Below are positions 58,995 through 63,225 of a DNA stretch of 64,000 nucleotides, one piece after another. Positions within the stretch are counted from its first letter, which is position 1, and each line of letters starts with the position of its first letter. The translations under genes and the position numbers were made by a program. Origin of the DNA: Candidatus Australimonas brisbanensis (lineage in GTDB: Bacteria; Chloroflexota; Dehalococcoidia; Lucifugimonadales; Australimonadaceae); assembly GCA_038147155.1 (NCBI GenBank), contig JAYQTA010000002.1, forward strand, positions 259,595 to 323,594. The letters are read 5' to 3'. The notes under the pieces were generated by a model that saw only the letters and a list, made by a program, of their open reading frames with translations, did no database searches and was not told the DNA's origin.

Positions 58995-59834
58995 CTAGGG
59001 CAGGGTGCTCACCGCGGCGAGCCCGGCGGCGATGGGCGCGGCGACGCCCACCTCCAGCGTCCAGGGCCGCGCAGAGACGGTGCGGTAGCCCATCTTCCCG
59101 CTGGGCTCCTCGGCCGCGATGCGCGCGGCCTCCTGCGCGCTCACGGCGAACACGCCAAGCCCGCCGCCCCAGATGCCGGGGGCCAGCGGTGCGAGTGGCT
59201 CCAGGGGCCCGCAGGACATGAGGCGGGCCGCCATCTCGTTGCTCCGCAGCCATACGAAGTGGTCGAGGCCCGTCTGCGCGTCCTCCTTGGGCCGCGGCGT
59301 GTTCGTCGGCTCCAGGTCCACCAGCATGAGCCGCGCGCCCACCGCCCGCCCCGCCAGTTCATCGCGCGTGAGGCTCACCTGGCCAGGGTTGGGGCTGAAG
59401 CGCGCGCCCGAGGCCTCCAACCGGCGCGAGAGCGCACGACCCACGTAGCAGGCGACGCCCTCGTTCATGGTGTGCGGGCGCACGCTCACCGTTCGCAGGC
59501 GTGCCTGGACGTAGGGATCGGCGGCTGCCGTGGCCTCGGCGTCAACCAGAGAGGAGGCAGCGATGATGCCCAGCGCCGGGACGTTGGCCATGGGCCCCTC
59601 ACCCCCATGCCCCAGCGGGCCATAGCCATACAGGCGCCCCTGCTGTTCCAACTGGTACAGGTGCGCCAGCAGTGCGTGCTCCTGCGCCGGGGTTGGCGCG
59701 GACGCATCGGCCACCGGCTGCGCCTGGAGCAGGTAGAGCTGCGCACGGGCCACGCGAGCGCGCAGCTGCTCACCGGTCAACTCCGTCAGCGGCACATCGT
59801 TGGTGAGCATCCGGGGTGCGTTGGGGCTGGTCAT
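58995..59834 (-). CDS. Tandem YCII-like domain protein
   Basis: Two YciI-like halves (…LAHLYQLEQQGRLYGYGPL… and …HFVWLRSNEMAARLMSCGPLEP…). Its SD (TAGGAGG) contains the stop codon of the upstream MerB-like gene. Confidence 0.7.
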   Translation of the reverse strand: MTSPNAPRMLTNDVPLTELTGEQLRARVARAQLYLLQAQPVADASAPTPAQEHALLAHLYQLEQQGRLYGYGPLGHGGEGPMANVPALGIIAASSLVDAEATAAADPYVQARLRTVSVRPHTMNEGVACYVGRALSRRLEASGARFSPNPGQVSLTRDELAGRAVGARLMLVDLEPTNTPRPKEDAQTGLDHFVWLRSNEMAARLMSCGPLEPLAPLAPGIWGGGLGVFAVSAQEAARIAAEEPSGKMGYRTVSARPWTLEVGVAAPIAAGLAAVSTLP

Positions 59835-59844
59835 GGCAGGCCTC

Positions 59845-60495
59845 CTAAACGGCTTTGAAGTCGCCCCTCGCCCGGCGCGTCATGTACTGGGGGCTGGAGC
59901 GGGCCCTGAATCGCTCTCCGCCGAAGCGCTTGAGCCAGGTGGCCAGCGGCAAAAGGTTCTTCTCGAAGGCGGGGTCGAACCCCTCCCACCGGCGTGCGTG
60001 CTCTTCAGACCTGAAGAGGTTCATGCGCGCTCACTTGTAGGCGAAGTCGCCCGGCGTGCCCAGCTCGGAGTCTGCGTAGCCCACGATCGTCGCGGGCTCC
60101 TGCTCGACCGACTCACCGTCGCGCACCGCGACGTGGATCGGCTCGCCACAGCACAAGCACGCGGTGTCGATGTGGACGGTCTTACCGGGGAAGAGCCAGC
60201 ACACGGCCAGCGCTTCGAGCCCTCACTGGGCGAACCAGCGCTGGTTGCCGTCGATGCTCACCCGATAGGCGTTGGGCAGTGAGGAGAAGGGGGCCAGGGA
60301 GACCAGCACGTCCTGCCCCGGCTCCATCCACCCCGGCAGGCCGGACTCGACCAACTCGTGCAGCAGGCCACGCGCCTGCTCCAGCGGCACGCCCAGCGTG
60401 GAGGCGAGCTCCGTGTAGTGCGGCGCGCGGCCGGTCTCGACGAACGAGCTCATCACCGCGTAGTAGGTCCTATCCAGCAGGTCCAGTTCGCTCAT
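59845..60495 (-). CDS. MerB-like (alkylmercury lyase family) protein with two in-frame UGA codons at the catalytic Cys positions; candidate selenoprotein
   Basis: Single 217-codon frame. ATG 60495 lies 5 nt after GGAGC. TGA at 60225-60223 and 60033-60031. Terminal TAG at 59847-59845. See findings for the alignment to MerB C96/D99/C159. Confidence 0.65.
60001..60018 (-). other. SECIS-like stem-loop 2 (after the second UGA)
   Basis: RNA CUCUUCAG-GU-CUGAAGAG, a perfect 8-nt inverted repeat. Apex CAGGUCUG. The GU lies at +24/+25 from the U of UGA. Confidence 0.6.
60190..60216 (-). other. SECIS-like stem-loop 1 (after the first UGA)
   Basis: RNA GAAGCGCUGGC-CGUGU-GCUGGCUCUUC: 10 pairs (2 G-U) and one C/U mismatch. 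The loop GU lies at +22/+23 counted from the U of UGA. Confidence 0.45.
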
Positions 60496-60572
60496 GACAG
60501 GCTCCGTTCGCGGGGATGCGGCGGGCCGATGGTAAAGCGCCCGTCCGTGGGGCGCAATCGAGAGCGGATGGG

Positions 60573-60630: not shown

Positions 60631-60981
60631 GTGCCCGCCGACCAACTCTCGCGCACCCTCTCCGCACTGGCCGACCCGACGCGCCGGGCCATGCTGGCGC
60701 GCCTGTCGGCGGGGGAAGCGACGGTGGGCGAACTCGCGGAGCCCTTCTCCATCTCCCAGCCCGCCGTCTCGAAGCACCTGCGGGTGCTGGAGCACGCGGG
60801 GCTGGTCGAACAGGGCAGGCGAGCGCAGTGGCGTCCCTGCCGTCTGCGGGCGGAACCCCTGCGGGAACTTGCCGGTTACCTGGAGCGCTACCGGGCGTTC
60901 TGGGAAGGGAGCCTCGATACGCTCGATGACTATCTCAAGAGCATCGGCGGCGAGGCCCGCCCAGGAGGCAGCGATGAGTGA
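60631..60981 (+). CDS. ArsR/SmtB family transcriptional regulator
   Basis: LSALADPTRRAMLARLSAGEATVGELAEPFSISQPAVSKHLRVLEHAGLV. Confidence 0.85.
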   Translation: MPADQLSRTLSALADPTRRAMLARLSAGEATVGELAEPFSISQPAVSKHLRVLEHAGLVEQGRRAQWRPCRLRAEPLRELAGYLERYRAFWEGSLDTLDDYLKSIGGEARPGGSDE

Positions 60982-61456
60982 GCAGCACACCGGGGAGATC
61001 GTCATCGAGCGCATCTTCGACGCACCGGCAAAGGCCCTCTGGCGGGCCTGGACCGTCCCCGAGGAGTTCGCGCGTTGGTACGGGCCCCAGGGGTTCAGCG
61101 TCCCGGAGTGCCGCATGGACCTGCGCGTGGGCGGCGAGCGCATCTGCTGCATGGCCGCGCCCAACGGCTTCCGCATGTGGATCGGCGGGCTCCTCCAGGA
61201 GGTCACTCCCCACGAGCAGCTGGTGTTCACCGACCAGCCATGCGATGAACACGGGAACCCGGTGCCCCCCTCCCACTACGGCATGCCGGTAGAGGAGTTG
61301 ATGCAGACGTTGGTGGCCATCACATTCGCGCAGAGCGGCGGGCGCACGGCACTAACAGTCCGCCAAAGCGGGTTCACCCCGGAACAGGTCGCCGACGAAC
61401 GAGCGGGCATGGGTTGGAACCAGTCATTGGACAAACTGGCGGCGCTGGTGGGGTGA
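60974..61456 (+). CDS. SRPBCC (AHSA1/START-like) domain protein
   Basis: ATG 60974 lies 5 nt after AGGAGG and overlaps arsR by 8 nt. IVIERIFDAPAKALWRAWTVPEEFARWYGP. Confidence 0.85.
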   Translation: MSEQHTGEIVIERIFDAPAKALWRAWTVPEEFARWYGPQGFSVPECRMDLRVGGERICCMAAPNGFRMWIGGLLQEVTPHEQLVFTDQPCDEHGNPVPPSHYGMPVEELMQTLVAITFAQSGGRTALTVRQSGFTPEQVADERAGMGWNQSLDKLAALVG

Positions 61457-62556: not shown

Positions 62557-63225
62557 CTACTTACCCGCGCTGGGGTCGTCCACCTTACGCAGGTAGGGCT
62601 TCACCGTCTCCCAGCCCTGGGGGAAGAGTTGCTTTGCTGCCTCGTTGTCCACGGCGGGCAGGATCACGACCTTGTCGCCCTTGCGCCAGTTGGCGGGGGT
62701 GCCCACCTTGTTCACGGCGGTCAGCTGGGCGGAGTCGATGACCCGCATCAACTCGTCGAAGTTGCGCCCCGTGCTCATGGGGTAGGTCATGGACATCTTC
62801 ACCTTCTTGTCCGGGCCGATCAGGTAGACGGTGCGGACCGTCTGGTTGTCAGCGGCGGTGCGCCCCTCGGAGCTGGCACCCGCGTCGGCGGGGAGCATGT
62901 CGTAGGCCTTGGCCACCGCTAGGTCGTCGTCAGCGATAATGAGGAAGTTGAGCGGCGTGCCCGCCAGGTCCGCGATGTCCTGGGCCCAGCGCTCGTGGTC
63001 GGCCACCTTGTCCACGCTCAGGCCGATGACCTTCACCCCGCGCTTGTCGAACTCCGGCTTGATCCGGGCCACGTGCGAGAGCTCCGTGGCGCAGATGGGG
63101 GTGAAGCCCTTGGGGTGCGAGAAGAGCATCGCCCAGGAATCCCCGAGCCACTGGTGGAACTAAATCTCACCCTCGCTGGTCTTGGCCTTGAAGTCGGGTG
63201 CGGTGTCGTTGATACGGAAGCTCAT
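62557..63225 (-). pseudogene. 1-Cys peroxiredoxin (Prx6-type) with an in-frame TAG at codon 22
   Basis: MSFRINDTAPDFKAKTSEGEI-TAG(63162-63160)-FHQWLGDSWAMLFSHPKGFTPICATEL..., one frame of 223 codons. ATG 63225 lies 5 nt after AAGGAGAA. Confidence 0.75.

Follow-up and report, generated by a model that had tools for sequence, protein, structure and literature searches.

A stretch of 64,000 nucleotides (nt) from Candidatus Australimonas brisbanensis, a member of the Dehalococcoidia within the Chloroflexota (contig JAYQTA010000002.1; hereafter, the window), carries on its minus strand, at 59845..60495, a MerB-like gene in which the codons for both metal-ligating cysteines of the organomercurial lyase MerB are replaced by UGA. 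We interpret it as an intact and genuine gene for a MerB-fold selenoprotein with two selenocysteine (Sec) residues, and put the probability of this interpretation at about 0.85. In the proposed product, U91 and U155 would stand in for C96 and C159 of MerB and Glu94 for the proton-donating Asp99, and each UGA would be recoded separately by a selenocysteine insertion sequence (SECIS) of the Escherichia coli type, located within the coding sequence ~11-12 nt downstream. Judged by its sequence relatives, the gene is an ordinary member of a large, widespread family and no one-off.

The reading frame comprises 217 codons (216 residues and a TAG stop), from ATG 60495-60493 to TAG 59847-59845, and contains exactly two internal stops, both TGA. 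These are codon 91 (60223..60225), in the column of MerB Cys96, and, 64 codons further on, codon 155 (60031..60033), in the column of Cys159. When the sequence was re-read, the coordinates and the translation were exactly those of a preliminary description of the locus, which had reported a single minus-strand frame broken only by these two TGAs. The conceptual product runs M1...Q90-U91-G-L-E94...K154-U155-A-R-M...V216, with WFAQ-U-GLEALAVCWLFPGK around the first UGA. A Shine–Dalgarno (SD) sequence, GGAG (60502..60505, minus strand), was read from the sequence 6 nt 5' of the start codon. The codon for Glu94, in the column of the MerB proton donor, is GAA at 60214..60216, and Cys113-Leu-Cys115-Cys116 is encoded at 60148..60159 (both on the minus strand). 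Cys113 occupies the column of the structural Cys117 of MerB; Cys116 is an extra, family-specific cysteine that forms a CxxC motif with Cys113, and both residues are invariant in the family. As had been noted earlier, the piece that follows UGA91 has neither an SD sequence nor a start codon, and the C-terminal piece has an ATG two codons past the second UGA and no SD sequence. The call of a complete gene draws on the frame, Pfam, the structure alignment, the orthologs and the codon-position pattern.

With U replaced by C for scoring, residues 70-188 match the Pfam MerB family (PF03243) at 68.4 bits against a cut-off of 27, which places the protein in the MerB superfamily and bears out the initial assignment. 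The alignment to MerB given in the preliminary description was right: a phmmer search of the PDB put codon 91 on Cys96, Glu94 on Asp99 and codon 155 on Cys159 of the MerB of plasmid R831b (1s6l, 3f2g), and all three on the equivalent positions of MerB2 (5c17). MerB2 is the best match among solved structures (5C17, E = 8.8e-9, residues 58-194). We modelled the fold with AlphaFold2 on a natural homolog with Cys at both positions (P0014), which is 45% identical to the window protein, using the family alignment as input. The model reached a predicted local distance difference test score (pLDDT) of 94 and a predicted template modelling score (pTM) of 0.90, and a Foldseek comparison with the PDB gave MerB and MerB2 as the only significant matches (probability 1.0, template modelling (TM) score 0.60-0.68; next match E > 0.5). 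The family is thus predicted to have the three-dimensional fold of MerB.

Within this superfamily, the protein is set apart from the characterized enzymes. R831b MerB (EC 4.99.1.2; PDB 3F0P, 3F2F, 1S6L) resembles it in fold (TM 0.60-0.67 for the family member), in the alignment of the three catalytic columns, in the structural cysteine column, kept as C113, and in length (~212-216 amino acids (aa)). Identity to R831b MerB is only ~17-20%, however, and the window protein has Sec/Glu/Sec in place of Cys/Asp/Cys, the additional invariant Cys116 and no merA/R/T/P context. The columns of the Cys96/Asp99/Cys159 (+ Cys117) signature accordingly hold Sec/Glu/Sec (+ Cys113), a chemically analogous set. 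Scores against the NCBIfam MerB equivalog models NF009710 and NF033555 fall far under their cut-offs (29.7 bits versus 193 and 21.7 versus 200, respectively), and on these scores canonical MerB membership was rejected. MerB2 of Bacillus megaterium Tn5084 (PDB 5C17) is the closest solved sequence, with a TM score of up to 0.68 for the family member; unlike the window protein, it belongs to a mer operon, its ligand residues are both Cys and its D99 column holds Ser.

A genome scan with one genome per species recovered a relative in at least 563 species-level genomes, and the best 80 of these were taken for reading at the DNA level. They belong to Dehalococcoidia/SAR202, other Chloroflexota, Acidimicrobiia, Desulfobacterota (‘Deltaproteobacteria’), Binatia, Methylomirabilota, Entotheonella and Poribacteria. 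In the resulting 82 copies (the window gene and 81 others), the codon 155 column (site 2) is TGA without exception (82/82), and the codon 91 column (site 1) is TGA in 69/82 and TGC or TGT in 13/82. Mapped on a neighbour-joining tree, site 1 switched between Sec and Cys at least six times independently. E94 is present in all family sequences, and the flanks of both sites are strongly conserved (WFAQ-U-GFEALAV and R-U-AGMNLFRSEEHAR), with K154-U155-A156 in the window and R/A-U-A/S/G in the family around the second Sec. Natural full-length homologs with Cys at both columns also exist (P0014, P0243, P0246 and P0274). An in-frame UGA that aligns with Cys in homologs is the classical mark of a selenoprotein. 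Comparison with Cys-containing relatives, which the preliminary description had proposed, reveals this mark at both positions, with conserved flanks on either side. One genome, that of Candidatus Entotheonella sp. DD2 (L029), has two double-UGA MerB-like copies, at about 10270 and about 14941, which point the same way and are separated by ~4.7 kb; both are TGA/TGA with intact hairpins.

Protein searches returned three kinds of homolog: proteins of ~235 aa from the Joint Genome Institute (JGI) with Trp at both catalytic columns; NCBI proteins of 154-156 aa, from metagenome-assembled genomes of Acidimicrobiia and Dehalococcoidia and named ‘organomercurial lyase’, which have Cys at the first column and end one residue before the second; and the rare full-length Cys/Cys proteins. 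When a profile was searched exhaustively against 1.84 billion representative proteins, 1,465 matched at E <= 1e-3 and 52 at E <= 1e-30. Among them, 39 representatives terminate at ‘...WFAQ’, and other matches are pieces of ~155 aa, 63-aa middle pieces and C-terminal pieces of ~77 aa. Because these fragments (~90, 155, 63 and 77 aa) start or end exactly at the two columns, their lengths follow the pattern expected of a gene with two UGA codons. The JGI records with Trp (P0001-P0013 and others; WFAQ-W-GFE and YA-W-STMNLF) presumably derive from alternative-code gene calls on short contigs. Both the Trp translations of JGI and the 154-155-aa C/U truncations of NCBI are systematic annotation artefacts of this double-Sec MerB-like family. 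A separate JGI record (P0016; 236 aa, 25 member sequences) shows an apparent Ser in place of the first catalytic residue (KWYGQ-S-GLE), with Cys at the second column, and is known from the protein record only.

Each UGA is followed by a hairpin that resembles a bacterial SECIS. In the E. coli fdhF-type element, the upper stem-loop spans nt 15-31, 11 nt from the UGA, and the loop nucleotides G23 and U24 are essential (PMC8659212). Counted in the same way from the U of each UGA, element 1 (60190..60216, minus strand) has a GCUGGC/GCUGGC core stem that includes G-U pairs and a CGUGU loop at nt 15-31 (60211-60195), with an outer GAA/UUC stem. Element 2 (59992..60030, minus strand) has the upper stem-loop CUCUUCA-GGUC-UGAAGAG at nt 16-33 (60018-60001) above a variable lower stem. 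Both hairpins match the E. coli-type geometry in their distance from the UGA and in the G/U of the apical loop.

The same elements recur across the family. At site 1, the GCUGGC/GCUGGC stem, closed by G-U pairs, carries an NGUNN loop with GU at nt 22-23; all six core pairs are kept in 68/69 Sec forms and the GU in 69/69, compared with 6/13 and 7/13, respectively, of the Cys forms. At site 2, every copy has a hairpin of the form CUCUUCC-GGUC-GGAAGAG at nt 16-33, with GGUC at 23-26, which RNAalifold also recovers; 76/82 copies have a GGUC loop and the remaining 6/82 have GUUC. In the window, a C-G pair of this stem has become A-U through synonymous substitutions in two codons (Arg CGG to AGG; Ser UCG to UCU), and compensatory changes are seen in both stems. 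Synonymous-codon entropy is ~1-2 bits at columns in which the amino acid is conserved, except at codons 160-165 (0.1-0.5 bits) and at Leu96, for which CTG is used in 70/77 copies (0.58 bits). The dominant codons at 160-165 are Leu CTC (72/74), Phe TTC (81/82), Arg CGG (75/82), Ser TCG (81/82) and Glu GAA (80/82), and third-position identity over these six codons is 0.91, compared with ~0.4 elsewhere. This freezing of synonymous positions, the frequent loss of the site 1 hairpin in Cys forms and the compensatory changes argue, at the level of sequence comparison, that RNA structure is under selection at both sites.

Codon-position statistics indicate that the frame is translated from end to end. 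Mean pairwise identities at codon positions 1/2/3 are 0.73/0.80/0.42 before the first UGA, 0.67/0.76/0.42 between the two UGAs and 0.58/0.64/0.39 past the second hairpin, a pattern of conservation that shows all three segments to be translated. It bears directly on whether the gene is instead a decaying pseudogene, or the product of a sequencing or assembly error, with nonsense mutations on Cys codons. Such a history is easy to conceive, in that TGY to TGA is a one-step mutation, a peroxiredoxin gene elsewhere in the window has an in-frame stop (TAG 63162-63160) and no Sec machinery is visible in the window. Yet the identical gene, with both TGAs, is present in two independent SRA assemblies (SRR26337511 and SRR26337522) that have a single mismatch across the surrounding 2-3 kb, which excludes a base-call error. 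TGA also recurs at both columns, in 69/82 and 82/82 copies, respectively, from many phyla, with no other lesions, and the hairpins are conserved along with the translated pattern. Decay or error is therefore rejected; the independent assemblies and the family-wide conservation effectively refute it, and we accord it next to no probability. The view taken in the preliminary description, of Sec recoding rather than decay, is upheld by the identity of the UGA columns, the interchange of Sec and Cys, the conserved hairpins, the translated-sequence pattern in three segments and the predicted MerB fold.

The UGAs might also be read as something other than Sec, by near-cognate Trp or Cys read-through or under a lineage-specific reassignment of TGA, or they might terminate translation to give a product of 90 or 154 aa, with the downstream pieces separate. 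The JGI gene calls with W at both positions, the 154-155-aa proteins annotated by NCBI as ‘organomercurial lyase’ and the ATG two codons past the second UGA are all in keeping with such outcomes. However, TGA is the ordinary stop of 17 of the 52 window genes, so the standard code applies in the window and global reassignment was rejected. The host lineages (Dehalococcoidia, Desulfobacterota, Acidimicrobiia and others) use the standard code too, and the W/W proteins are most simply explained as gene-caller artefacts, best read as alternative-code calls. In genomic DNA, Cys codons are the sole replacement of TGA at these columns. Trp at two metal-ligand positions would wreck a MerB active site, and the missing start and SD signals of the downstream pieces speak against their separate expression. 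SECIS-type hairpins lie at the canonical distance with the SelB-contacting GU or GGUC loop, and site 1 tends to lose its hairpin when the codon is Cys. Together, these observations make a non-Sec reading of the UGAs very improbable, although less so than decay or error. The overall use of stop codons in the window, taken from a rough gene list based on GC at third codon positions, is 32 TAG, 17 TGA and 3 TAA over 52 predicted genes (1-64000). This dominance of TAG is unusual at a GC content of 70%, at which TGA normally leads, and could be due to a lineage-specific bias, or to selection acting against TGA as a stop in a lineage that decodes Sec.

Several observations weigh against a double-Sec MerB-fold enzyme. 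No selA, selB, selD or tRNA-Sec lies within the 64-kb window: none of 30 window open reading frames (ORFs) encodes SelA, SelB or SelD, the window contains no tRNA and no Rfam match, and no tRNA-Sec was found in 60 related loci. We infer that the organism can decode Sec. No other selenoprotein candidate was found in the window, in which a scan for coding-flanked in-frame TGAs gave the two MerB-like sites only. The hairpins that the preliminary description placed after the two UGAs can be folded from the window sequence, yet their energies are ordinary for DNA of 70% GC: neither is more stable than dinucleotide shuffles (site 1, z = -0.06; site 2, z = -1.24), and their significance comes from the cross-genome comparison alone. 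Covariation in the stems is modest, because the stems are nearly invariant. The structure model is that of the 45%-identical Cys/Cys homolog and not of the window protein itself. The gene is accompanied by neither mer genes (merA/R/T/P) nor any other conserved neighbour. A bis-selenolate site would, moreover, bind Hg(II) very tightly, so that turnover would be in question.

A MerB relative that contains Sec is already known, a point on which the preliminary description, which knew of none, has to be corrected. SaoL, the MerB-like selenocysteine-assisted organometallic lyase (NF040728), was published by Haft and Gwadz (bioRxiv 10.1101/2022.07.06.499078; J Bacteriol 2023). Like the window protein, SaoL belongs to the PF03243 superfamily, has Sec at the column of MerB Cys159, is routinely truncated at the UGA in databases and is predicted to bind or cleave organometals. 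Unlike it, SaoL has one Sec only, which forms part of a CU dipeptide, and retains the MerB residues Cys and Asp at the C96 and D99 columns; in the window protein, K-U-A stands in place of CU, the C96 column holds a second Sec and the D99 column holds Glu. SaoL is encoded in a conserved nine-gene SAO locus found in anaerobes only, whereas the double-Sec gene stands alone and occurs in SAR202/Dehalococcoidia, Acidimicrobiia, Binatia, Methylomirabilota, Entotheonella and Desulfobacterota. The window protein scored 39.1 bits against the SaoL model, over residues 65-137 only and under the cut-off of 140; given this score, the lack of a CU motif and the lack of an SAO locus, membership of SaoL was rejected.

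Other precedents are more distant. In Sec-MerP and Sec-MerT (both from the Global Ocean Sampling (GOS) survey), in Sec-HgcA and in the UxxU metal-binding protein NF041115, Sec likewise replaces a metal-binding Cys, several of these proteins being related to mercury. Bacterial proteins with two Sec residues listed in a selenoproteome review of May 2026 hold both in a single short motif (UxxU or CxU), close together in sequence, whereas those of the window protein have their own SECIS elements and are predicted to come together only once the protein has folded, in its active site. SaoL is the sole MerB-like entry in the selenoproteome reviews of 2022 and May 2026, the GOS survey (2008) lists Sec-MerP and Sec-MerT and no MerB, and the main merB survey demands Cys96/Asp99/Cys159/Cys117, with Sec never considered (PMC8261052). 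In the literature searched, which included these reviews, the GOS survey of 2008 with its supplements and Peng 2016, and outside the scope of which lies Haft and Tolstoy 2025, we found no earlier description of a double-Sec MerB family, only of the SaoL type. No model in NCBIfam release 20.0 recognises the family. What appears to be new is therefore not Sec in a MerB relative, but a separate and widespread family with Sec at both ligand positions and two SECIS elements.

We hypothesize that each SECIS hairpin recruits SelB carrying Sec-tRNA(Sec), by which both UGAs would be decoded, and that the fold would bring U91, U155 and Glu94 together as it does C96, C159 and D99 in MerB. The substrate, in this view a soft organometal and most probably an organomercurial (methylmercury, for example), could then be bound through Se-metal bonds, and Glu94 would protonate the carbon leaving group, cleaving the carbon-metal bond. 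Selenolates are deprotonated at neutral pH and bind Hg more strongly than thiolates; more acidic, more nucleophilic and more Hg-philic, they may permit capture and cleavage at very low substrate levels; in MerB mimics, selenium analogues cut Hg-C faster than sulfur analogues (PMC11639659). The cost of a bis-selenolate would be tighter binding of the product and slow release of Hg(II), for which the C113/C116 CxxC motif is a candidate hand-off site. That the substrate is specifically an organomercurial seems to us to fall just short of an even chance.

Nearly as plausible is a double-Sec MerB-fold selenoprotein with a different task: action on another soft organometal or organometalloid (Sn, Pb, As, Te or Se species), service as a metal trap or chaperone of very high affinity, or diselenide or selenenylsulfide redox chemistry with the CxxC motif. 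Several features would suit such a task, among them the lack of a mer operon or conserved neighbour, the low MerB equivalog scores (29.7 versus 193 and 21.7 versus 200), an acidic residue that is Glu and not Asp, the extra invariant Cys116 and the difficulty of releasing Hg(II) from a bis-selenolate. The authors of SaoL proposed that Sec at the metal site may shift the substrate range, and noted that MerB can bind other metals (10.1101/2022.07.06.499078); the local ArsR-type regulator, for its part, belongs to a generic type of metal and metalloid sensor. Cleavage of organomercurials is favoured instead by the retention of the three MerB catalytic columns in equivalent chemistry (U/E/U), invariant or nearly so, by a fold that matches MerB and MerB2 only and by the acceleration of Hg-C protonolysis by Se analogues in model compounds (PMC11639659). 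We consider a different task to have somewhat less than an even chance of being correct.

Neither a mer operon nor the nine-gene SAO neighbourhood surrounds the double-Sec gene, which stands alone. In the window, the next gene downstream on the minus strand encodes a 279-aa YCII-domain protein (58995..59834), the ATG of which lies 10 nt past the MerB-like stop and the SD sequence of which overlaps that stop (TAGGAGG). The two are probably co-transcribed; the pairing is not conserved in other lineages. On the plus strand, an ArsR/SmtB-type helix–turn–helix (HTH) regulator (60631-60981) and an AHSA1/SRPBCC protein (60974-61456) form a divergent pair that shares a 135-bp intergenic region with the MerB-like gene, an arrangement that is local context only. 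A search of this region for an ArsR operator gave only a weak 70% palindrome. Farther away are an NMT1-like binding protein, a Rieske oxygenase, an F420H2-dependent reductase and a luciferase-like monooxygenase. None of the window neighbours adjoins the gene in the other 80 loci, and all-against-all clustering of ORFs within 7 kb of the gene in 81 loci found no conserved partner. Because the gene stands alone, without a mer or SAO operon, a housekeeping or scavenging role is suggested rather than classical plasmid-type resistance.

In a subset of closely related Dehalococcoidia only (L003, L004, L008 and about 14 others), a ModB-like permease, a ModC-like ATP-binding cassette (ABC) ATPase (molybdate/tungstate-type) and a regulator with HTH and binding domains recur +1.2 to +3.3 kb from the gene. 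This recurrence probably reflects lineage synteny and no functional link. The part of the window at 38726-58988 is rich in genes of the aromatic and xenobiotic catabolism type, including two LigXa-like Rieske oxygenases, cupins, amidohydrolases, an FAD aromatic-ring hydroxylase, a glyoxalase/dioxygenase, a luciferase-like monooxygenase and an F420H2-dependent reductase. This density of catabolic genes is consistent with a Chloroflexota organism specialised on recalcitrant compounds. The PurK encoded in the window shares 100% identity with a protein from an NCBI contig of 394,769 bp and 87% with one from a metagenome-assembled Chloroflexota genome.

The peroxiredoxin gene with the in-frame stop encodes a 1-Cys peroxiredoxin (AhpC-TSA + 1-cysPrx_C; 62557-63225, minus strand) and was rejected as a second window selenoprotein, because the codon in question (63162-63160, codon 22) is TAG and the cysteine is intact. 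Its sequence reads MSFRINDTAPDFKAKTSEGEI*FHQWLGDSW...FTPICATE, and the remainder of the gene, including the peroxidatic Cys, is undamaged. The same TAG occurs in an independent JGI metagenome contig of a strain variant (L084:678-860) and thus does not stem from misassembly. Possible explanations are a fixed nonsense mutation, a restart at Met33 and read-through.

The double-Sec MerB-like genes would add to the known selenoproteins an abundant family in which every chain has two Sec residues, served by separate SECIS elements. To our knowledge, bacterial proteins with more than one Sec are rare, and the family offers a natural system for the study of repeated SelB-dependent recoding within one mRNA. 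Its natural U/U, C/U and C/C variants form a ready-made series on what selenium adds at a metal-ligand position. Annotation pipelines need a model for the family, the truncated pieces of which NCBI now names ‘organomercurial lyase’.

More tentatively, and with slightly more doubt than we attach to the organomercurial substrate, we propose that this unannotated and widespread family cleaves carbon-metal bonds at a bis-selenolate active site, formed by two distant Sec residues with a separate SECIS for each. An enzyme with Sec at both catalytic metal ligands would be a first, and the family would represent an overlooked selenium-dependent route for the degradation of methylmercury or other organometals. 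Environmental surveys that gauge the potential for methylmercury demethylation from merB require intact ORFs and the Cys96/Asp99/Cys159 signature (PMC8261052), and genes of the double-Sec family go uncounted because they are split into pieces of 90, 63 and 60-80 aa, truncated at 154 aa or given Trp. The family occurs in dominant lineages of ocean, soil and sediment; if its members do cleave Hg-C bonds, the demethylation potential, and its dependence on selenium supply, would have been underestimated.

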